In this document: positions 45,880 to 58,851 of the stretch, piece by piece
Numbering within the stretch: position 1 is the stretch's first letter
Layout: each line of letters begins with the position of its first letter
Assembly (NCBI GenBank): GCA_000990565.1
Contig: LBQC01000002.1
Coordinates: 6,182-70,181, forward strand
From: Candidatus Roizmanbacteria bacterium GW2011_GWA2_35_19
GTDB lineage: Bacteria > Patescibacteriota > Microgenomatia > UBA1406 > GWC2-37-13
Length of the DNA: 64,000 bases
Direction of reading: 5' to 3'
Position numbers and translations under genes: made by a program
Notes under the pieces: model-generated
Database searches by the model: none
What the model was told of the DNA's origin: nothing
The model's input: the letters and a program-made list of their open reading frames with translations, nothing else

Positions 45880-48804
45880 ATGTTTAAACCAGTTGACCCA
45901 AATATAAATTTTCCTGAGATGGAAAAAAAGTGGCTTGCTCACTGGTATAAAACCGGTGTTGTAAAAAAGTATCTTACAAAAAATAATAAATCTAATAAAT
46001 ATTTTTCTTTCTTAGATGGACCAATAACTGCCAATAATCCAATGGGAGTCCATCACGCTTGGGGACGAACGTATAAGGATTTATGGCCGAAATTTCATAA
46101 TTTATTGGGTTACAAGCAGAGATTTCAAAACGGTTTTGACTGCCAGGGTTTATGGGTCGAAGTTGAGGTAGAAAAAGAATTGGGTTTAAGATCAAAAAAA
46201 GACATTGAGAATTTAGTGCCAGGGGACCGAAAAAAATCAATTGCAAAATTTGTCCAGCTTTGTAAAGACAGAGTGATGAAATTTTCAGCTATCCAGACGG
46301 AACAATCTAAAAGATTGGGATACTTCGCTGATTGGGATCATTCCTATTTCACAATGAGTCCAGAAAATAATTACATGATCTGGCATTTTTTAAAGACATG
46401 CTTTGACCATGGATGGATTTATAAAGGCCATGAATCGGTGCCTTGGTGCCCACGGTGTGAGACTGCAATATCACAGCATGAAATGCTGACAGAGGATTAT
46501 AAAGAACTTGTGCATGAATCAGTAATTCTTGAATTTAAGATCAAAAATTCCTCCTTCGCCAAGGCTTCCCCCTACGTCAAGACTTCGGAGGACAAGTCGG
46601 AGGACAAGCAAAATTCAAAAATAAGTAGCGAATATTTATTAGTGTGGACGACGACGCCGTGGACAATACCTGCTAATATCGCCGTTGCGGTTGATGTAAA
46701 AACTGTAAAAGGTAAAGAGCTTGTTGGGTTAAAATATACCTCTCCTTTTGACAACTTACCGATTGTAAAAGAAGTCGCAGAAGAAAATCCTGATACTTTT
46801 CACACTGTAATACCTACTGATAATCAAATAATGCCGATATCGGCCGCAGAAGGCACGGGCTTAGTACATACTGCAGTAAGCGCCGGTACAGAAGACTTTT
46901 TATTAGGTAAAAAACTTGGACTTCCAATGATACCTGTTATTGCAGACAACGCTGATTATCTTCCCGGACTAGGATTTTTAACTGGAAAAAATGCAAAGAA
47001 ACATCCGGAAATTATATTAGATTTTTTGCGGGAAGAAGATAAAAAAGGAAATGACTGCGTCTTTAGTATTTTTAAATACAAGCACCGTTACCCGGCTTGT
47101 TGGAGATGCAAGACCGAATTAGTTTGGAAAGTCGAGGATGAGTGGTACATCGCGATGGATTTACCATCGCGAAGTCAAAAGTCAACATTGAGGGAAAGAA
47201 TGATGGAGGTGGCAAAGAAAATAAAGTGGATGCCGGAATTTGGATTAGAGCGAGAGCTTGATTGGCTGAAAAATATGCATGATTGGCTTATTTCAAAGAA
47301 AAATCGATATTGGGGTCTAGCTCTTCCAATTTATGAATGTGAGAAATGCGGAAATTTTGAAATAATTGGATCTAAGGAAGAGTTAAAAATACGCGCGGTA
47401 TCCGGCTGGTCAGAATTTGAAGGAAAAACTCCTCATAAGCCATATATAGATGAAGTTAAAATTAAATGTCAAAAATGTGAATCTGTAGTTTCAAGGGTTG
47501 ATGATGTAGGGAATCCATGGCTTGATGCAGGAATCGTAGCATATTCTACAATTGCTGAAAATAATCAGGGAGAACCTTTATATTTAAAAAATAAAAAAGA
47601 ATGGGAAAAATGGTTCCCTGTTGACTTTATTACCGAATCGTTTCCTGGCCAGTTTAAAAACTGGTTTTATGCTTTAATTGCAGAGTCGACCGTACTTGAG
47701 AATAAGCCACCTTTTAAAAGAGTCCTCGGTTTTGGTACTCAACTTGGAGAAGATGGTAGACCGATGCATAAAAGCTGGGGAAATGCGATTGAGTTTAACG
47801 AAGGCGCCGATAAAATTGGAGTTGATGTAATGAGGTGGATGTTTACTCGCCATAACCCTGCCGACAACATGCTATTCGGGTATAAAAAAGCCGACGAAGT
47901 AAGAAGGCAGTTTTATCTTATGCTTTGGAATATATATAAATTTTTCGTTGAATATTCTAATTTAGATGAATGGTCTGGACACCCTCAGGGTGACCAGAAG
48001 CATAGTGGTCACCCTAAGGGTGTCTTGGATAAATGGATTATAAGTCGACTTGCCCAAACAACTCAAAAAGTTGAAGAAAGGATGAGGGAGTTTGATGCTA
48101 AGGATGCAACGCTCGCAATTGAAAAGTTTGTATCAGACCTTTCGACTTGGTTTTTAAGACGAAGTCGTGATCGTGTCTGGGTAAATTCAGATGATGAAAA
48201 AGATAAAAAAGAATTTTATGAAACTTTATATTTTGTCTTAGTTAATCTCTCAATAATTACGTCACCATTTATGCCATTTATTTCTGAGGAAATTTATAAA
48301 AATTTAACGGATGGTGAGTCTGTCCATCTTGAAACATGGCCAAAATTTAATAAAAAAATGGTCGATGATAAATTAATTTTGAATATGGAATTGGCAAGAA
48401 ATATAAGCGAGGCAGGGCATGCAAAGCGAAAAGCCGACGGCCAAAAAGTGAGAATTCCACTTGCTGTGCTTAGCGTAAAACTTGAAGGGAAATTTGATTC
48501 AGTTGTTGACAAAGTTTGGGAATTAATTTTGAAAGAATTAAATGTAAAAAATATTGAGGTTAATGGAAAAAATAAATTTCCTAAAAAATTTATAGAGGTG
48601 TCACCTGATGATTTAGAAAATGAGGGACAACTTAGAGAACTACTTAGAACAATACAATCAAAAAGAAAAGAAATGGGACTTAAGCCAACCGACCATATTA
48701 ATTTGACTATTCCAGATAATTTTTTGGAAAATGTCGAATTCATAAAAAAACGCGTCATGGCACACAAAGTTAGCATCGGGCCTGATATTATGATTTCTAA
48801 ATAA
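45880..48804 (+). CDS. ileS: Isoleucyl-tRNA synthetase (type 2-like) with in-frame palindromic inserts
   Basis: DGPITAN..GVHH, GFDCQGLWVE, WTTTPWT, GTGLVH and MHKSWGN motifs. Confidence 0.95.
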   Translation: MFKPVDPNINFPEMEKKWLAHWYKTGVVKKYLTKNNKSNKYFSFLDGPITANNPMGVHHAWGRTYKDLWPKFHNLLGYKQRFQNGFDCQGLWVEVEVEKELGLRSKKDIENLVPGDRKKSIAKFVQLCKDRVMKFSAIQTEQSKRLGYFADWDHSYFTMSPENNYMIWHFLKTCFDHGWIYKGHESVPWCPRCETAISQHEMLTEDYKELVHESVILEFKIKNSSFAKASPYVKTSEDKSEDKQNSKISSEYLLVWTTTPWTIPANIAVAVDVKTVKGKELVGLKYTSPFDNLPIVKEVAEENPDTFHTVIPTDNQIMPISAAEGTGLVHTAVSAGTEDFLLGKKLGLPMIPVIADNADYLPGLGFLTGKNAKKHPEIILDFLREEDKKGNDCVFSIFKYKHRYPACWRCKTELVWKVEDEWYIAMDLPSRSQKSTLRERMMEVAKKIKWMPEFGLERELDWLKNMHDWLISKKNRYWGLALPIYECEKCGNFEIIGSKEELKIRAVSGWSEFEGKTPHKPYIDEVKIKCQKCESVVSRVDDVGNPWLDAGIVAYSTIAENNQGEPLYLKNKKEWEKWFPVDFITESFPGQFKNWFYALIAESTVLENKPPFKRVLGFGTQLGEDGRPMHKSWGNAIEFNEGADKIGVDVMRWMFTRHNPADNMLFGYKKADEVRRQFYLMLWNIYKFFVEYSNLDEWSGHPQGDQKHSGHPKGVLDKWIISRLAQTTQKVEERMREFDAKDATLAIEKFVSDLSTWFLRRSRDRVWVNSDDEKDKKEFYETLYFVLVNLSIITSPFMPFISEEIYKNLTDGESVHLETWPKFNKKMVDDKLILNMELARNISEAGHAKRKADGQKVRIPLAVLSVKLEGKFDSVVDKVWELILKELNVKNIEVNGKNKFPKKFIEVSPDDLENEGQLRELLRTIQSKRKEMGLKPTDHINLTIPDNFLENVEFIKKRVMAHKVSIGPDIMISK
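47978..48024. repeat. REPIN-like inverted REP doublet in frame inside ileS
   Basis: GACACCCTCAGGGTGACC, an 11-bp spacer, then GGTCACCCTAAGGGTGTC. Confidence 0.8.
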
Positions 48805-50553: not shown

Positions 50554-51096
50554 ATGAATGAAAATATTGACGAGATAATACAACAAATAAAAGATGAAAA
50601 AGATGTATTTAGTAAAGCAAAGCTAATAAGATTTTTAATGAGAGAAAAAAACATCAAGGTAAAAGAAATTGCCACAAAACTAAATATTAATTCTTCTTAT
50701 GTTAGTCATTACAACAGAATTTATAAACTACCTGATTTAGTAGTTGATGGTTATTATTCAAAGCTTATTAGCATAAGTCATTTATTTGTTATTTCCCGAA
50801 TTAAAGATCCAAAGAAAATTGTTGAAGTTTATGAAAAAGTATTGGAAAGAAATTTAAATATACTTCAAACTGAGGATTTAATCCGTGAGCAACTGTATGA
50901 GATAAAATCTTATGGGATTTATTTAAAAGACAAAGTTAAAAAAGAAATAATCTTAAATCTTATTAAGAGATATCCTTCTATAAAAATGAAAATAATTCAG
51001 ACAAAAGTTAAAGGAAAAATAATTATCGAAATCCCTGGCAATCTTGAAAAAACCTCAAAATTAATAAGAGAGTTTTTATCTGATAGAGCGAGGTAA
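50554..51096 (+). CDS. ParB-like HTH protein lacking the N-terminal CTPase domain
   Basis: KEIATKLNINSSYVSHYNRIYKLP...ISISH resembles the ParB/Spo0J HTH region. Confidence 0.7.
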   Translation: MNENIDEIIQQIKDEKDVFSKAKLIRFLMREKNIKVKEIATKLNINSSYVSHYNRIYKLPDLVVDGYYSKLISISHLFVISRIKDPKKIVEVYEKVLERNLNILQTEDLIREQLYEIKSYGIYLKDKVKKEIILNLIKRYPSIKMKIIQTKVKGKIIIEIPGNLEKTSKLIREFLSDRAR

Positions 51097-51645
51097 AGGA
51101 TTTACAATTGCACCAACACTATTTGTTGGAAAATATCGGTAGAATACTTGGCCAATCATGCTTTGGGCGGGTACTGCACAAAATTCTCTTGAATCCGAAG
51201 ATCTTGGGCGATTGTCTCCCATTACAAAAAGTTCACCATCGGGCACGCTATATTCAACGTTATTTTTTATGCAACCGGTGTCCCATAGATTAGTCGTTGC
51301 AGAAATATAATTTTCTGTAATCACTTGACCATTAACTGACACGGCTCCATCGTTAATATTTATTTTGTCTCCTGGAAGTCCAATAATTCTCTTGATGTAT
51401 TCTATATCGGGATTTTTAGGGGACTTAAATACAACGACATCACCGCGCTCTGGCCTTCTGAATTTATAGGTAACTCGAGATGTTAAAATATAATCACCTG
51501 ATATAAATGTCGGCTCCATCGAAGCACCCTTAACTTGATTTGGTGTAAGAATAAATAAGTAGACGACAATAAAAAGTGAGCCAATGAATACAATCGTTTC
51601 TAAAATATCCATCACAAAATCAATGACATTTTTTACTAGACCCAT
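51076..51645 (-). CDS. lepB: Signal peptidase I
   Basis: GASMEPT, RGDVVVF, YIKRIIGLPGD and MGDNR..SSDSR motifs. Confidence 0.96.
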   Translation of the reverse strand: MGLVKNVIDFVMDILETIVFIGSLFIVVYLFILTPNQVKGASMEPTFISGDYILTSRVTYKFRRPERGDVVVFKSPKNPDIEYIKRIIGLPGDKININDGAVSVNGQVITENYISATTNLWDTGCIKNNVEYSVPDGELFVMGDNRPRSSDSREFCAVPAQSMIGQVFYRYFPTNSVGAIVNPLPRSIR

Positions 51646-51709
51646 AACTTTTCATTTTAAGAAAAGATATGTTAAAAAACAAGGGATTATATATAATACA
51701 TATATAGTT

Positions 51710-51910
51710 GGATCGTTAGCTCAGCGGTAGACCTGCCCGACTTGCCGAGGACCTGTAGCTCAGTTGGCTAGAGCGTTGCATTCACATTGCAGATGTCAGA
51801 GGTTCGAGTCCTCTCAGGTCCACAAGTCAAGGCAGGCGGGGCGCTGCATTCACATTGCAGATGTCGTAGGTTCAAACCTGCCTGCCGGCAGGCAGGTCCT
51901 GCACAATCCA
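51710..51910 (+). tRNA. tRNA-Val(CAC) interrupted by two palindromic insertions (51732-51840 and 51877-51896)
   Basis: Removing both inserts gives the 72-nt sequence GGATCGTTAGCTCAGCGGTAGAGCGCTGCATTCACATTGCAGATGTCGTAGGTTCAAATCCTGCACAATCCA. It folds as a full cloverleaf with one acceptor-stem mismatch. Confidence 0.75.
51749..51822 (+). tRNA. tRNA-Val(CAC), intact
   Basis: Acceptor stem GGACCTG/CAGGTCC, D arm GCTC/GAGC, anticodon loop TTCACAT, T arm AGAGG-TTCGAGT-CCTCT. Confidence 0.93.
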
Positions 51911-51913
51911 CTA

Positions 51914-52065
51914 TTGCATTCACACCTGCCCGCCTTGCTTCGCAAAGCGATGCTGGTGGGTTGAAGAGGTCGGGGTTTCCGCCAAAGGCGGATTAACTGA
52001 CAGTAAGACTCTCCGCCAACTGGCGGATCGTTAACTGTCAGTTGAACAAGTCCCTCAACGGTCAC
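51914..52065 (+). pseudogene. Third tRNA-Val(CAC) remnant (3' half) with palindromic insertions
   Basis: TTGCATTCACA-[36-bp insert]-TTGAAGAGGTCGGGGTT-[nested hairpins]-CAAGTCCCTCAACGGTCA, followed by a T run. Confidence 0.55.
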
Positions 52066-52144
52066 TTTTTTTGCTCTATTGATTTCATAAAAAGATGCTG
52101 TATACTAGTACAACGTTAGTAATAGTTTAGATTGATGCGCGAGC

Positions 52145-52173
52145 TTGACATTAAAAATATTAGGTGATATAAT
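52145..52173 (+). promoter_or_regulatory. Consensus sigma70 promoter
   Basis: TTGACA-17 bp-TATAAT upstream of the giant surface protein frame. Confidence 0.85.
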
Positions 52174-55100
52174 CAGCGAGAAATAGCCGAAATTACATCT
52201 TCAGTTGAAATAACACCAACTGATGAACCAACCCCAACACAAGAAATCAGCGTCGAACCAACTCAAGAAGTTACACCAACAGTAGAAGTCCTTCCAACAA
52301 TCGAGGTAACCATTGAGCCAACAGTTGAATCAACACCGATCCCAACAGAAACTCCGGTCATTGTTCCTGAAGTTACAACCGAAGTAAGTCCGACAATAGT
52401 TGTAGAGACACCTTTGCAATCCGTCCAGGACACAACGCCGGCACCTAATCCACTAGAAGTCACCAATTCACCTTCACCTCCACAACCTTCACCAACAGAA
52501 GTTATCACGACACATTTAGTCAATGGAGTCGTCGAGACAGCCTTAGTTGAAAGCTACTCATGCCGCGCCGATTCTTTAAACGGGTGTTTAGTTACAGATA
52601 AACCAGATTACGCTCCAACAGATGTAGCTGTAATCACAGGCCATGGTTTTTCAGCAAACACCAGTTACACCCTACGGGTGCTATCTTCAGATCAACCGGC
52701 GGTTGATTCAGAATACCAAATAACAACTGATGTGAATGGTAGTTTTACATATAGTTATCAACTAGATGGAAACTACAGACCAAACTATCTAGTAGAACTA
52801 AAAGATTCTTTTGGCTTTGTCGTTGCCTCAGTGACTTTTACGGATACAGCAAGCTCATCAATATTAGCAACAACAGTTGGTAATTATGATCAGTGGACTG
52901 CAAATTCCGGTACCAAAGAAACCGCTGTTTCAGCTAATGATGGTGATACGACTTATATAACCAACAGCACGAACGCTCAAAGACAATCATTTGTTTTTTC
53001 AAATGCAGGAGTGCCAGCTGGAGCAACAATTAATTCTGTAACACTTTATGCAATTGCTAAAGAGGGAGAGGGTGGATCTAAACTCAAACTTTTAGTTGAA
53101 AAAGGGACTCTAGTTACAGATAGAAGTTTAGGAAGTGATAATAATTTAACAGGTAGTTATGTTGCATACAGTCGCGCAATGACAACTAATCCTTTTACCG
53201 GGGTTGCTTGGTCACTAGCTGAAGTAAATGGTTGGACAGTAAAATTTGGTGTAGAAAATGGAGCAAATAAAATTGCAAGGGTTTCTCAACTATATTTAAT
53301 AATTGATTATACTGAAGCCGGTCCGACTACAACACCAACAAACACGCCAATTCCAACATCTACACCTACAAATACACCAACTCCGACGGTTACGCCTACT
53401 CCGACATCCGCATCAACTCCCACACCAACTATTTCATCGACACCTTCAGGTGTACAAACGGCCATTGGAAGCTGTGTTGAAGATGCTTACGGATCAAATC
53501 TAAATTGTACAGCTAACGATGTATCTATCGCTAACGTAACGGGTATTACCGTTACTGATGATTGTGATTTTCCAGGCGACACAGCCACTTTTACGGCTAC
53601 TTGGAACGTTCAGTCGACAGCCACCGAGCGCTATAATATTGGTCTATATTTTGCTTCACAGGGCCAAACAAGCGCAATGAATGGCACATGCTCAGTCTCA
53701 ACATTGGCTAATAGCCCTGTTCCTCCAAACTATAATTTCGATGGTAACGCTTGTGGAGATATAAGTAGTTCTGCAATGGTTAACCCGGTCATAACAATGA
53801 CGGTTCAATGTGATGATCCAGACGGTGACAATGTACTAAACCTTCCTTACTGTACAAGTTGGAATCAAAACTCAGGTGAAAACATATCATGTTCAGTCCC
53901 AGGAGATGCGATTCCAGGCGCTCCATCGAAATGTAACTGTCAAGACGGTTTTGAACTTCCAATCGTAGTTCCTTTTGAAGCTAAAATTGAGGTTAAAAAA
54001 ACCTTATCACCAACCGATGATCCAGGAAGATTTAATTTGCAAGTTAATGGATCGGATGAAGTAAGCTGTGTTGGAAATAATGGAACAACTGGCCAAGTGA
54101 CAGTTGGAGCAGGGACAAGCTCAAGTCCTGGCGCAACTCACTCAGTCGGAGAAACGGCTTGTACAAGTCCAGCCACGGATCTATCAGACTATAATTCTTC
54201 AATCATCTGTGTTGATAGAGGACTATCAACTTTTGATGGTGGAGCCGCTTTGACACAAAGCGGAACCGGACCATTAAATGTTGACGTTGATAAAGACGAT
54301 GACATAGTATGTACAATCACAAACACACAAAAACAGGGAACTTTGATAGTTAAAAAGGTGGTAGTAAATGATAATGGTGGGACAAAAACTGCCTCCGATT
54401 TTACATTTTCAGTCAATGGTGATACTGCAGTTGCATTTGAAGCTGATGGGCAAAATGATTTAACGGTTGATTCTGGAAATTATACAGTCATAGAACCAGC
54501 GGTATCAGGCTATGTAACGACTTATGACAATTGTACTGACGTCGCAGTCTCGCCTGGTGGAAGTGCAACCTGCACAATCACAAATGACGATATTCAACCA
54601 ATGCTTACTGTCACTAAAGTAGTTATTAATGACAACGGTGGAACTGCAAGTGATTCAGCTTGGACTCTTACTGCGACCGGTACTTTGGTATCACCAACTA
54701 ATTTAAGTGGAACAACCCCAGTTGATAGTGACAGTACTTTTAAAGCTGATACTTATACTCTAGCTGAAACTGGCGGACCAATAGGTTATACCGCTTCATC
54801 ATGGGTCTGTGTCGGTGGAACTCAAAATGGAGATGAGATAACCGTAAATATTGGCGATGATATCACTTGTACAATCACAAATGATGACCAAACAGGAAGA
54901 TTGGTTGTAAAAAAGATCCTCGTAAATGATGATGGTGGGAACAAAGATTTTGAGGATTTTTCTTACAAAGTAAATGGCGGATCTTCGGTACTTTTTGACA
55001 CTGACGGTCAAAATGAGTCAACTGTTGATTCAGGCAACTATACCATAGTTGAAGATCCAGAAACTGGATATGCTACTACTTATGATAATTGTGATAGTGT

Positions 55101-58100
55101 TTTTGTGCCTAATGGTGGATCAGCCACTTGTACAATCACAAATGATGACATTGCTCCAACTTTGAAGCTGGTTAAATTAGTAACTACTGATAATGGCGGT
55201 TCTGCAGTCGCTCATGATTGGACATTGACCGCATCAGGAAGCGCCGGATTTTCCGATTTTGGAGATGCATCAACTTTTCACGAAGTACTTGCAAATGAGT
55301 CATATGTTCTTTCTGAATCAACAGTCCCTGGTTATGAAGCTGGAAGTTGGGATTGTACCAATGCCGGTCTTCAGGGAAATGTTGTCTTACTTGGGTTAGA
55401 TGAGCAAGTTACATGCACAATCACAAATGACGATATTCAACCAATGCTTACTGTCACTAAAGTAGTTATTAATGACAACGGTGGAACAAAAGTAGTTTCT
55501 GATTTCCCATTATTTGTAGATTCAACTAGTGTGACATCGGGAGTTCAAAATGGTTTTAATGCTGGTAATTATGTCATAAGCGAAACTGGCTTGGACGGAT
55601 ATTCTGAATCAATCTCAGGTGACTGCGACGCTCAAGGGAATGTCACTTTAGGATTAGGAGACACAAAGTCATGTACAATCACAAATGATGATGACAGACC
55701 TTCTCTAACCCTTAACAAAGTAGTTGTTAACAACAACGGTGGGACAACTGATGAAAGTGCCTGGACATTAACTGCAACTGGTACAGGAGATACTCCAACT
55801 AATCTATCAGGTCAAGGAGCATCAGGTTCAGCCGATGTTGTCTCTGGAACCTCCTTTAAAGCCGATACCTATACCTTAGATGAATCTGGTCCTTTAAATT
55901 ACACAGAGTCCTCATGGAGCTGTGTTAAAAACGGAGGAGATCCAGTTACAGGTTCAACAATCACGCTTAGCCTAGGTGATTCAGCTGTCTGTACAATCAC
56001 AAATGATGATGACGCACCGACTCTGACACTGGTAAAAGAAGTTGTTGGTGGAACAAGTGTTGCTTCTGACTGGACTCTTACCGCAACAGGTGCAACGGGA
56101 TTTAGTGGATTTGGACCAACTGTCAATAATGGTGACTCGTTTGATTCGGGATCTTATGATCTTTCTGAATCCGGACCATCAGATTATACCGCTAGTGATT
56201 GGGTGTGCGTAGGTGGGAATCAGACAGATGGAGACACAGTAGAGATTAGTCTTGGAGAAGATGTAACCTGTACAATAACAAATACTCGCGATACAGGTGC
56301 TTTAGAAGTAAATAAACAAATTGATTCTGATGGAGACGGAATATTTGAAGGTGGTAATACTGAAGCTAATAGCTTAGGTTTTGTTTGGGGGTTAGATAGT
56401 CAAACTCCAGCTCGGGCAATGGGTTCTACCGCATCGTCTTTAGACACAGGCTCGTATGATGTTGATGAAAACAATGATGTAGCAAATTATCATTTTGTGG
56501 GATGGTTTTATAATGATAGTGATTATTCTTGTGAAGAACCTGAAGAGACGGAGTTGCCAGCTTCAGTCAATGTATTCAAAGACACAACAACCTCAATAAC
56601 TCTATGCAATGCCCGTGATATCGGAATAATTACCGTTGACAAAATTACTGATCCAAGCGAGGCTCCAGATGAGTTTACTATTAACCTAAATCAAGGTTTA
56701 GCTGGGGATCCAACTCTAATAAAAAGCTCGGTATTAGCAGATCAAACAACACCTGATTCATATGCTATTCCAACGGGTGAGTACTGGTTTGAAGAACTTG
56801 TAAAAACAGGTTGGGATCTTACAGATGCTAATTGTGTTGTCAATGAAGATATAGAAAATAATTTTGATCCAAGAGCGGACTCTTTCAATCTAACAACAGA
56901 TACTAATCTTGATTGTACATTTACCAATACTCAAAGAGGAAAAATAATTGTTACAAAATATCAAGATAACGATGGAGACGGCATAAAGGATGAAGATGAG
57001 GCTACTCTTGAGGGATGGGACATGCACTTAAGTCAGGGCGAGGGCTTTAGTGCAAATGAAACTACAGATACTCTAGGAAATGCCACCTTTAACAATCTTC
57101 TAATTGGATCATATGTACTAAGTGAACAGGAACGAGAAGGGTGGTCTCTAACAAATATTAGCTGTTTATCTGATGAGAGTCGCGGTTTAGACACAAGTAA
57201 TGAACATTCAGTGACTGTAGCAGCCGGTGAAAATATAACCTGTGAAATTGGTAACCTGCCGGATAACTCAGAGCTTCAGATTTCAAAATCAAATGACGGA
57301 GTAGATAAATCACCCGGTGGGACTGTTATCTACACAATTAAAATAAAAGCTTTAAATAATAAAGTATTGGGTGTTAAAGTCAAGGATTTGCTTCCAAAAG
57401 GTTTTAGTTTCCAAAATGTCATTTCCATAATTCGAAATGGAGTTGATGATATTACCGCTTTAGTTGGCGATCCCCTTTATGCCTCTCCTGGAACGTATAA
57501 TTTAGGAGACATGGACGCTGACGATGAAGTAATCATTAAATACCAAACTAAAATCGACGGCTCACAGGAATTTGGACTTTATAAAGATGCGGCTTGGGCA
57601 GTCGGGACAAGCGAAACAGATAGTCGAGTTTTGGCACTAGCTCAACCCGAAGGATTTGTGTCAACTAATTTTGTGGGAACTGGGGTACGAGTCAATGGAA
57701 ATCTAACTGAAAGTGGAAATGTAGATGTAGAAGGCGAAGTACTCGGTGCCTCAACTTACTTACCAGCAACAGGTGCTAATTCATTCTGGATCTATTTTGG
57801 ATCAATTATGGCCTTCTTAGGGATATTAATAATTGCAGGAGCTTTTATGATAAGAAAAACAAAGATATTATTAACGACATTGTTAGTTGGTGGCTTAGTT
57901 ACTTGGTTAGTTGGCTCAAGTCCAGTGATGGCTTCTGATCTTACAATCAGACTTTCTGAGCCAAAGACACCTACAAAAATAAATAACTTTAAAATTGACT
58001 TTGTTACACTTGATCTGTCAGAATCGGGCAACCCAATCACTGTAAAATGTTTTTATAAGAAAAATTTGGCAGATGCTTGGACTCAATATGGATCAGATAT

Positions 58101-58851
58101 TGCGGTCACAGCCCCTGGGAACAGTGGTAGCTGTCAAGAAGTATCATCTTTTGTAAACACTAGTGGTTCAACTTATTATTTCAAGTCTACTGCTTCAAAT
58201 GGAGTAGTGTCAGATGACTCTGAAACTCAAGGATTAGTATCGGTCGGTTATGATGATCGCGATCCAACAGTCCCAACTAACTATAAAAAAGAAAAAATCA
58301 GCTCTTGTCAATATAAAGTAACCTTCAAGACTGCAGATGATGGTATGACTTCACGAGTTGAAGTTTATAGATCTGAAACAACTTCAATTGTGCTTGATGG
58401 ATCAACCCGGGTTGGAGATATCACAATCGCCCCAAATACCGAAGGATCATTCACAGAATCAGTACCTGACTGTAATAAGACTTATTACTACATAATCCGA
58501 GCCTTTAATGTGGCTGGAAATGCGTCAGGGCCAATAGGTGATAGTGTGACCGTTGTTTCGGGCACAACTACTACCACAGAACAGGGAGCAATCTCGGTCT
58601 CGGTCGGTACTTTGGCCGGCGAGACAGGCGGATCAGTGCTTGGAGAGGGGACTGCCGAAGGCGAGATTAAGGGCGAGGCCTCAGGATCAGGAAAACCAGA
58701 AGTAATCAATGTAAAAGGCTCAATGACTCAAAAAGTAGTTGACTTTGTCACCAAAAAGAAAAAACTAACTCTCCTTATAGTTGCACTTGTAGCCGCTTTC
58801 GGGTACGCTGTATATTATGTCTTCAAAAAGAGAAAAGACAAGATTGTCTAA
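52168..58851 (+). CDS. Giant surface protein with Pro/Thr linkers, repeated Ig/prealbumin-like domains and an internal LPATG-TM signal; 5' end missing; possibly two fused genes
   Basis: The frame is open from 52168. It has repeated CTITNDD..LxVxKxV.ND.GG domains, LPATG at 57760-57774 followed by a TM helix, a second signal-like segment from ATG 57847, and a terminal TM helix with a basic tail. Confidence 0.85.
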   Translation, partial: YNQREIAEITSSVEITPTDEPTPTQEISVEPTQEVTPTVEVLPTIEVTIEPTVESTPIPTETPVIVPEVTTEVSPTIVVETPLQSVQDTTPAPNPLEVTNSPSPPQPSPTEVITTHLVNGVVETALVESYSCRADSLNGCLVTDKPDYAPTDVAVITGHGFSANTSYTLRVLSSDQPAVDSEYQITTDVNGSFTYSYQLDGNYRPNYLVELKDSFGFVVASVTFTDTASSSILATTVGNYDQWTANSGTKETAVSANDGDTTYITNSTNAQRQSFVFSNAGVPAGATINSVTLYAIAKEGEGGSKLKLLVEKGTLVTDRSLGSDNNLTGSYVAYSRAMTTNPFTGVAWSLAEVNGWTVKFGVENGANKIARVSQLYLIIDYTEAGPTTTPTNTPIPTSTPTNTPTPTVTPTPTSASTPTPTISSTPSGVQTAIGSCVEDAYGSNLNCTANDVSIANVTGITVTDDCDFPGDTATFTATWNVQSTATERYNIGLYFASQGQTSAMNGTCSVSTLANSPVPPNYNFDGNACGDISSSAMVNPVITMTVQCDDPDGDNVLNLPYCTSWNQNSGENISCSVPGDAIPGAPSKCNCQDGFELPIVVPFEAKIEVKKTLSPTDDPGRFNLQVNGSDEVSCVGNNGTTGQVTVGAGTSSSPGATHSVGETACTSPATDLSDYNSSIICVDRGLSTFDGGAALTQSGTGPLNVDVDKDDDIVCTITNTQKQGTLIVKKVVVNDNGGTKTASDFTFSVNGDTAVAFEADGQNDLTVDSGNYTVIEPAVSGYVTTYDNCTDVAVSPGGSATCTITNDDIQPMLTVTKVVINDNGGTASDSAWTLTATGTLVSPTNLSGTTPVDSDSTFKADTYTLAETGGPIGYTASSWVCVGGTQNGDEITVNIGDDITCTITNDDQTGRLVVKKILVNDDGGNKDFEDFSYKVNGGSSVLFDTDGQNESTVDSGNYTIVEDPETGYATTYDNCDSVFVPNGGSATCTITNDDIAPTLKLVKLVTTDNGGSAVAHDWTLTASGSAGFSDFGDASTFHEVLANESYVLSESTVPGYEAGSWDCTNAGLQGNVVLLGLDEQVTCTITNDDIQPMLTVTKVVINDNGGTKVVSDFPLFVDSTSVTSGVQNGFNAGNYVISETGLDGYSESISGDCDAQGNVTLGLGDTKSCTITNDDDRPSLTLNKVVVNNNGGTTDESAWTLTATGTGDTPTNLSGQGASGSADVVSGTSFKADTYTLDESGPLNYTESSWSCVKNGGDPVTGSTITLSLGDSAVCTITNDDDAPTLTLVKEVVGGTSVASDWTLTATGATGFSGFGPTVNNGDSFDSGSYDLSESGPSDYTASDWVCVGGNQTDGDTVEISLGEDVTCTITNTRDTGALEVNKQIDSDGDGIFEGGNTEANSLGFVWGLDSQTPARAMGSTASSLDTGSYDVDENNDVANYHFVGWFYNDSDYSCEEPEETELPASVNVFKDTTTSITLCNARDIGIITVDKITDPSEAPDEFTINLNQGLAGDPTLIKSSVLADQTTPDSYAIPTGEYWFEELVKTGWDLTDANCVVNEDIENNFDPRADSFNLTTDTNLDCTFTNTQRGKIIVTKYQDNDGDGIKDEDEATLEGWDMHLSQGEGFSANETTDTLGNATFNNLLIGSYVLSEQEREGWSLTNISCLSDESRGLDTSNEHSVTVAAGENITCEIGNLPDNSELQISKSNDGVDKSPGGTVIYTIKIKALNNKVLGVKVKDLLPKGFSFQNVISIIRNGVDDITALVGDPLYASPGTYNLGDMDADDEVIIKYQTKIDGSQEFGLYKDAAWAVGTSETDSRVLALAQPEGFVSTNFVGTGVRVNGNLTESGNVDVEGEVLGASTYLPATGANSFWIYFGSIMAFLGILIIAGAFMIRKTKILLTTLLVGGLVTWLVGSSPVMASDLTIRLSEPKTPTKINNFKIDFVTLDLSESGNPITVKCFYKKNLADAWTQYGSDIAVTAPGNSGSCQEVSSFVNTSGSTYYFKSTASNGVVSDDSETQGLVSVGYDDRDPTVPTNYKKEKISSCQYKVTFKTADDGMTSRVEVYRSETTSIVLDGSTRVGDITIAPNTEGSFTESVPDCNKTYYYIIRAFNVAGNASGPIGDSVTVVSGTTTTTEQGAISVSVGTLAGETGGSVLGEGTAEGEIKGEASGSGKPEVINVKGSMTQKVVDFVTKKKKLTLLIVALVAAFGYAVYYVFKKRKDKIV

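Follow-up and report, generated by a model that had tools for sequence, protein, structure and literature searches.

How an intact tRNA gene came to lie within a second tRNA gene of the same anticodon is the question raised by the stretch of 64,000 nucleotides analysed here (the window), which belongs to a Candidatus Roizmanbacteria genome of 1.12 Mb (35% GC, 86.7% complete) and holds the nest on contig C2. An earlier note had offered two explanations, either a mini-element which enters tRNA genes and carries a replacement copy, or hairpin inserts which are removed at the RNA level so that one transcript yields two tRNAs. With a probability of about three in four, we consider that a gene-less hairpin cassette replaced the tRNA-Val(CAC) in place at the DNA level.

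Architecture and assembly of the nested locus

The syntenic anchor of the tRNA-Val(CAC) locus is lepB, the gene of signal peptidase I, on the reverse strand (51076-51645); all features described below lie on the forward strand. The TATAAT remarked upon in the earlier note was found at 51692-51697, 12 nt before 51710, and is the likely -10 box of the tRNA locus; it was not among the promoters listed by a two-hexamer promoter scan. The outer tRNA-Val(CAC) starts at 51710. Its 5' part (51710-51731), composed of the 5' strand of the acceptor and the D arm as far as the break, is likely the older resident, and these 22 nt are identical to those of the intact alleles L004 and L027. The D stem is split by a 109-nt insert with hairpin ends (51732-51840), which consists solely of a 17-nt left arm (51732-51748), an intact inner tRNA-Val(CAC) with no encoded CCA (51749-51822) and an 18-nt right arm (51823-51840) complementary to the left one, the two arms pairing together in the fold. 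The insert is free of overlapping ORFs of 80 aa or more. There follow the middle part of the outer gene (51841-51876), with the end of the D stem, the anticodon arm with CAC, the variable loop and the T arm up to its break, a 20-nt perfect palindrome in the T loop (51877-51896), which is the minimal member of the hairpin family, and the outer 3' part (51897-51910), with two stem-weakening differences from L004 and L027. On re-reading, both breaks proved to have been placed exactly in the earlier note.

The inner gene was called by both ARAGORN and Rfam (RF00005, 68.3 bits, E 9e-13) and is the only tRNA which they called in the window; it is also the sole intact Val(CAC) among the 34 tRNAs called in the assembly. 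When both inserts were deleted in silico, ARAGORN called a tRNA-Val(CAC) from the outer gene; when only the 109-nt insert was deleted, it called none from that gene. Each excision has a single possible register, and therefore there is no target duplication at either insert, as had been claimed. In the restored outer gene the acceptor stem has a C.A mismatch and the T stem a T.G wobble, neither of them remarked upon in the earlier note, and the congener alleles L004 and L027, which have the same acceptor, show Watson-Crick pairs at both of these weakened positions.

A third tRNA-Val(CAC) remnant, a 3' half missed by the earlier note, lies downstream at 51914-52064. It comprises the 5' side of the anticodon arm to position 37 (51914-51924), then at 37/38 a 36-nt member of the hairpin family (51925-51960), the 3' side of the anticodon stem with the variable loop and the 5' side of the T stem (51961-51977), a 69-nt composite hairpin of other families in the T loop (51978-52046; DNA fold z -6.45), and the 3' sides of the T stem and acceptor (52047-52064). 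An insert like the 69-nt hairpin is present at the identical T-loop position behind tRNA-Leu(TAG) on contig C12. Of the 46 bases of the remnant, 41 agree with the congener allele L006; its 5' half was sought upstream and was not found.

A nest of this kind could be an artefact in which two tRNA-Val alleles from different organisms were joined in the assembly. The mapping over the locus called for in the earlier note was made with assembled contigs. A contig of run X1, which may be the source sample, spans 51674-51785, and one of run X4, another sample of the same study, spans 51674-51781, neither with any difference from the window; a further X1 contig, again without difference, spans 51793-52186 and takes in all the remaining junctions. 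The public contigs jointly bridge every junction. A chimera would accord with the fact that the nest is nowhere covered from end to end by one contig, 7 nt of the inner anticodon arm (51786-51792) lying between the pieces, and with the evidence being that of contigs; however, independent unitigs cross every junction and agree with the window throughout, at the left junction in two samples, and the identical architecture occurs in many unrelated assemblies. Because of this recurrence we regard a chimeric assembly as scarcely credible. At 97%, runs X3, X4, X8 and X10 gave no contig over 51816-51863, a hole which proves nothing. A contig joint from 51731 to 51846 was considered as an empty allele and rejected, its short side being of 24 letters, with 5 foreign letters between and 85% likeness; it was taken as the tRNA of another organism.

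Further downstream, the X1 and X3 contigs have 122 extra letters at 52186/52187, where the X4 pieces break, and the window may be missing 122 nt at the start of a SpaA-repeat surface protein gene. This large gene (ORF 52414-58851) has a perfect TTGACA-17-TATAAT promoter at 52145-52173.

Recurrence of the inserts and decay of the interrupted genes

The 20-mer of the outer T loop has 10 exact copies in the host genome, and its pattern was found in 87 of 401 genomes of the phylum, as against 0 for the reversed control. It is made up of two 10-nt ends placed head to head, and the longer members of the family add apex sequence between the same ends. The ends of the cassette are common to this dispersed family of 20-46-nt palindromes, which bears out the kinship of the two inserts proposed earlier. 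Among the 25 host-genome copies with family ends, 16 lie outside tRNA contexts, 8 lie in tRNA remnants and 1 is doubtful; the hairpin family is therefore not tRNA-specific, and confinement to tRNA genes is a feature of the tRNA-carrying form only. Inspection by eye revealed no common motif in the flanks of the insertions. At 7 of the 16 non-tRNA sites the fold is better than in at least 90% of the windows nearby, and 3 of the 7 belong to a single repeat family; a preference of the hairpins for hairpin targets is only suggestive. No Rfam family was found for the cassette arms.

Other palindromes were seen in passing. At C3:37309, C9:14474 and C25:19134 the 20-mer stands inside a REP-like palindrome, each time two bases away from its loop, and this REP-like palindrome also flanks a Y1 transposase on C34. 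The ileS-type class I aminoacyl-tRNA synthetase gene of the window (45880-48804) contains two in-frame GC-rich palindromic stretches, at about 46549-46605 and at 47980-48023, the second of which is a long near-perfect hairpin with an end motif that also flanks Y1 transposase genes.

The D-stem junction was scanned for in 19 of the 64 parts of the genome collection, and the 120 loci obtained were composed of 74 non-tRNA loci, 22 tRNA-less hairpins, 15 nests and 9 unresolved rows, several of the last being nests which were recovered in the pooled set. Of the 15 tRNA-carrying inserts, 11 could be removed by a single excision to give a full tRNA, as against none of the 22 tRNA-less hairpins, two rows of which had been misfiled as empty (L071 is a double nest and L088 is cut by the contig end). 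The search of related tRNA genes for family inserts, suggested in the earlier note, was also made with a context-free signature, namely the left end of the element followed by a tRNA start. This signature was present in 29 of the 401 phylum genomes, or about 7% of those sampled, as against 2 for the reversed control, a few of the 29 being due to chance; it was present in 2 of 43 genus genomes and at 119 metagenome loci, many of which are due to chance. Viral contigs contained 35 tRNAs with a left-end match and 3 with a loose right end, none of them a true-looking cassette.

The pooled sets contained 53 tRNAs with both cassette ends, of which 7 rows look like chance (L187, L199, L207, L265, L331 twice, and L354), none of these being among the 21 nests that could be restored. 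The insert was exactly 110 nt long in 17 of the 53 rows, and the insertion sites were in the D stem or in the anticodon loop at 35/36 or 37/38. In all of the 21 restorable nests the inner and outer anticodons match (permutation mean 4.0, with 0 of 20,000 permutations as high). Manual reading of the phylum set placed all 18 closed cassettes, the Val nest included, in tRNA remnants: 13 had the same anticodon, 4 were unreadable and 1 read CAT in a Thr-type stem.

Two more nests are present in the host genome. The second involves tRNA-Met (C1:76473-76661), with a 117-nt cassette in the anticodon loop and a 58-nt hairpin in the D loop, and the removal of both restored a Met(CAT); the third involves tRNA-Leu(CAG) (C20:39898-40115) and was not restorable. 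The contig ends C13 (33900-34090) and C20 (40120-40218) have the same sequence of about 95 nt, each beside a tRNA remnant, the one on C13 consisting of a 3' half alone, with a short palindrome for its anticodon arm. At locus L060, the left arm and the first 23 nt of an inner tRNA-Lys are tandemly repeated with one right arm, which is either a re-insertion into the D stem of the inner gene or an assembly slip. The outer genes of two different nests, L054 and L158, have a second short palindrome at the same position of the anticodon loop.

Comparison of the stems within the 21 restorable pairs showed more mismatches in the outer gene in 12 and fewer in 0, with 9 ties (sign test p 0.0005). The outers were free of stem mismatch in 7 of the 21, which fits recent insertion but also function. 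These figures bear on the second explanation of the earlier note, in which both hairpins would be cut from the transcript and the outer tRNA ligated, giving two tRNA-Val(CAC). That precise excision restores a tRNA called by ARAGORN and that perfect stems occur in these 7 outers elsewhere are what splicing would lead one to expect, and the anticodon site 37/38 used by some of the cassettes is the classical intron position. Nevertheless, the outers decay, the outer Val gene itself having its acceptor mismatch, a tRNA-less hairpin in a whole gene was met at 0 of the 22 loci, and 16 of the 25 family copies are not in tRNA contexts at all. No bulge-helix-bulge was found at the junctions, the RNA fold ending both inserts at their own helix foot with no paired 3-nt bulges, and neither the splicing endonuclease EndA (PF01974) nor the ligase RtcB (PF01139) was found in the 86.7% complete genome. 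The claim of removal at the RNA level found no support in this comparison, and we judge splicing to be very improbable. Since the anticodons match, the outers decay and tRNA-less hairpins are absent from whole genes, replacement at the DNA level is favoured.

Archaeal and eukaryal tRNA introns and bacterial group I tRNA introns also break tRNA genes at exact points, 37/38 and the D arm among them, and group I introns have reportedly been described in tRNA genes of Patescibacteria in a preprint. The cassettes differ from tRNA introns in that no splicing motif and, in the incomplete genome, no splicing machinery was found here and the interrupted genes decay. Group I and group II introns have a catalytic core of some hundred nt, while the inserts at this locus are of 20 nt and of 109 nt, 74 of which are tRNA, and Rfam gave no intron family at E up to 5. 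A relaxed ARAGORN run with introns allowed produced 1,762 spurious calls, which were discarded. If the genes were replaced at the DNA level, the split shells would be scars, for which annotation as introns or split tRNAs is inappropriate.

The probable older copy and the proposed course of the replacement

A search of 61 genomes for the locus yielded 30 loci, and 26 from relatives held lepB. Empty alleles, which the earlier note had proposed to look for at the orthologous lepB locus, are the rule there: one uninterrupted tRNA-Val(CAC) was found in 24 of the 25 same-genus loci, the 25th being cut by the contig end, and in 24 of 25 relatives the orthologous tRNA is preceded by a TATAAT at a distance of 35 nt or less. 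The 26th locus (L019, same order), read by eye, contains a GIY-YIG-like ORF together with tRNA fragments that are split by hairpins. The alleles L004 and L027 have their acceptor and T arms in common with the outer gene, and because they match it, with Watson-Crick pairs where the outer gene is weakened, the latter is most probably the resident gene, now decaying. The inner tRNA, described in the earlier note as differently sequenced, is identical to the restored outer gene at 56 of 74 positions and to the congener allele L005 at 68 of 75, and therefore it is no recent duplicate of the gene which it splits. In the anticodon arm the inner and outer genes agree at 30 of 33 nt, above the agreement found there between the outer gene and L004 or L027 of the same acceptor, which hints at arm-level exchange among tRNA-Val(CAC) alleles.

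This agreement makes some local exchange plausible, and it is the point on which a local tandem duplication of the resident tRNA could be argued, the copies having diverged and hairpins having come to stand around one of them by chance. The acceptor and T stems, however, differ wholesale with their pairing kept, a tandem duplication would not nest one copy within the other, and the same junction and arm family are found in many genomes, so that a local origin appears highly unlikely.

The 26 lepB loci display 11 acceptor types, for which 15 changes are needed on the lepB tree. The minimum of acceptor-type changes on the lepB tree was 10, with a shuffled mean of 17.2 and 3 of 200 shuffles as low. 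The 15 changes fit, weakly, with repeated allele swapping. The mean identity among alleles was 0.77 for Val(CAC), 0.87 for Pro(TGG), 0.85 for Trp, 0.79 for Pro(GGG) and 0.78 for Arg(GCG); the support from allele diversity is weak, since the control tRNAs were picked, with bias, by their likeness to the alleles of the host genome and are only partly less diverse. Cassettes may help to explain how 11 acceptor-stem types came to occupy one syntenic locus in 26 related genomes.

Under replacement at the DNA level, the cassette of 109 bases, 35 of which are hairpin arms, would likely have entered the D stem of the resident tRNA-Val(CAC) as DNA. The insertion was precise and without target duplication, the ends are those of a dispersed palindrome family, and cassettes of about 110 nt occur across the phylum with a cargo that differs in sequence from the split gene and has the same anticodon. 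Such an insertion would kill the resident gene and would be lethal unless a replacement were supplied; the cassette likely takes over both the job and the promoter. It may move between genomes as a unit and be placed by homology between cargo and target, with selection purging those insertions which fail to rescue the broken gene. The dead outer gene would subsequently gain further hairpins, such as the 20-mer here, together with point mutations, and would finally be deleted to leave a swapped allele. Placement by homology is likelier than promiscuous insertion followed by selection alone, because the free hairpins are mostly outside tRNAs and none of the 18 closed cassettes is. The first explanation of the earlier note, that of a mini-element with a replacement copy, thus stands on the empty alleles, the recurrence, the anticodon match in 21 of 21 nests and the decay of the outer genes. 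Its consequence would be that a core gene of translation is swapped in place for a foreign allele without an integrase or a target duplication, and without an enzyme gene being moved along.

Several pairs of nests inform on whether arms and cargo move together. L089 and L093 have identical arms, cargo 93% identical and outer genes 67% alike, and in L048 and L158 the cargo is 90% identical and the outers are 62% alike. By contrast, the arms of L033 and L166 are identical although their anticodons differ and their cargo is only 68% identical, so the two parts of a cassette need not be inherited as one; over 437 non-independent pairs, arms and cargo correlate weakly (Spearman 0.25). Outside this locus no cassette nearly identical to that of Val was found, and the signature itself occurs in only 2 of the 43 genus genomes. 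One may ask whether the replacement took place in two steps and without a travelling unit, a tRNA-less hairpin of 35-37 nt landing first in a tRNA gene, either a spare one or one where it could be tolerated for a short time, after which a foreign allele recombined into its apex. The arms add up to 35-37 nt in 24 of the 53 rows, which is the length of the free 36-nt hairpins, hairpins do accept apex inserts, and the identical arms with different cargo of L033 and L166 would find a ready explanation; yet none of the 22 loci showed the intermediate required, in which a gene is whole apart from a tRNA-less hairpin, and L089 and L093 have the same arms and cargo in different outer genes. We consider this course unlikely.

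Replacement by a cassette which arrives whole may be taken further, tentatively and with more doubt than confidence, to a gene-less mobile element of Patescibacteria, about 110 nt long, whose sole cargo, a tRNA gene, acts both as homing guide, by pairing with the cognate gene, and as antidote, which is inserted without duplication by a small single-strand GIY-YIG nuclease supplied in trans and which drives repeated horizontal replacement of tRNA alleles at fixed loci. If true, this would establish a novel class of selfish element, and with it a site-specific insertion system that is minimal and can be retargeted.

Candidate enzymes and known systems

The best candidates for the mobilising enzyme are small GIY-YIG nucleases. 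The host genome has 13 GIY-YIG matches, 12 of them in frames of 80-128 aa, and 7 of the 13 are at most 200 nt from a tRNA, as against 1.9% for random windows. Among the tRNA-adjacent ones are those at C15:2844-3059, C28:35025-35228 and C5:17517-17732. The mean number of matches per genome was at least 5.7 with the 20-mer and at least 3.2 without it, in related genomes which are not independent; at most one GIY-YIG was found in 2 of 87 palindrome-positive and in 107 of 313 palindrome-negative genomes (G214, which counts as one negative in the 401-genome tallies, being left out of this one). The co-occurrence is confounded by kinship and by the general load of mobile DNA. There is no GIY-YIG on the contig of the nest. 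Within 300-500 nt, GIY-YIG genes accompany 0 of 20 nests as against 8 of 20 tRNA-less hairpins in tRNA fragments, for which reason the nuclease would act in trans; within 1.5 kb they accompany 2 of 18 nests. A hairpin of the family adjoins GIY-YIG genes at C15 and C28 in the host genome. The least certain step of the scheme, to which we would give somewhat less than an even chance, is that a small single-domain GIY-YIG nuclease encoded elsewhere cuts hairpin ssDNA in trans, probably during DNA uptake and recombination. A Competence domain (ComEC-type) with one internal TAA stop is found at C6:17355-18116. The GIY-YIG proteins belong to the Pfam family GIY-YIG, with UPF0213 proteins as their solved relatives, and the tRNA-adjacent nucleases may be another subfamily, Slx1-like. 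What the numerous small GIY-YIG genes next to tRNAs do becomes directly testable with short oligonucleotide substrates.

The order hairpin-split tRNA 5' fragment, small GIY-YIG ORF and intact tRNA was observed at C15:2731-3170, C5:17480-17834, C28:34918-35290 and C16:2620-2969. The intact tRNA has the 5' end of the fragment, which is clear at Lys, Asn and Gln; at Glu there is no clear fragment.

Y1 transposases are an alternative enzyme, five of their genes being present in the host genome, but these are flanked by other palindromes (by eye). No reverse transcriptase was found in the incomplete genome.

The inner tRNA needs the removal of a leader of about 40 nt and the addition of CCA. A search of 43 genomes of the genus yielded neither the protein of RNase P nor its type A RNA in any of them. 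A PIN_5 (HARP-type) protein, from the family of protein-only RNase P, is encoded at C39:8179-8790, and a PolyA_pol/CCA-family protein is present in the host genome. It is predicted that the inner tRNA is released from the longer transcript by the HARP-type protein-only RNase P and that the nucleotidyltransferase adds the CCA.

No description of nested tRNA genes or of the palindrome was found in the open-access literature (main texts, with few subscription journals), in keeping with the remark of the earlier note that it knew of no described bacterial case; the nested cassette architecture is real and recurs, and is apparently unpublished. Integrative elements which target tRNA genes (prophages, ICEs and genomic islands) also leave one working copy and a fragment; in the cases described they measure about 9-23 kb, and the target is directly repeated, complete at one end of the element and partial at the other (PMC9897764). 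The cassette, on the other hand, is of 109 nt, gene-less, with inverted ends, no duplication and no integrase gene, and holds a whole different allele nested between the halves of the old gene. With MITEs it has in common the terminal inverted repeats, the lack of coding capacity and the many copies (25, one of them doubtful), and it departs from them in that neither insert shows a target-site duplication. The hairpin ends and the absence of target duplication are also those of REP and IS200-IS605 (Y1 HUH) elements, but no cognate Y1 gene flanked by the same repeat and no fixed short target motif were found.

GC-rich gene-less palindromes which spread, merge and enter genes are likewise known as Rickettsia palindromic elements (RPEs), REP/BIME and yeast mitochondrial GC clusters (PMC1779305, PMC4478555). 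RPEs are of 100-150 bp, GC42 has a target-site footprint of two bases (AG), and in the available text of these sources no tRNA cargo or replacement of tRNA genes is described for RPEs and GC clusters (PMC1779305, PMC4478555). In the main text of a paper on CPR rRNA insertions the words tRNA, palindrome and hairpin are absent (PMC11270868). A GIY-YIG nuclease that does drive the spread of tRNA genes is SegB of phage T4, a free-standing homing endonuclease which recognises a tRNA T-arm motif in DNA; according to the available text, however, SegB moves its own gene and the flanking tRNAs by gene conversion between phages, with no nesting (PMC2330249), while the cassette encodes no nuclease.

Ssn single-domain GIY-YIG nucleases cut ssDNA near a hairpin and have been linked to natural transformation, and their NTS/SRM resemble the present family in being dispersed 20-50-nt hairpin repeats alongside small single-domain GIY-YIG genes (PMC11893778). 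A hairpin beside a GIY-YIG gene was found here for the tRNA-less hairpins and not for the nests, and the cassette hairpin does not match the NTS consensus. The word tRNA is absent from the main text of the Ssn paper, and no insertion activity or cargo is described in the available text of it (PMC11893778). Small GIY-YIG genes flanked by repeats like the NTS consensus, as given in the available text of that paper, were noted in the host genome at C48:5922, C18:3122 and C12:24716 (PMC11893778); these three loci are likely to be true Ssn-type elements.
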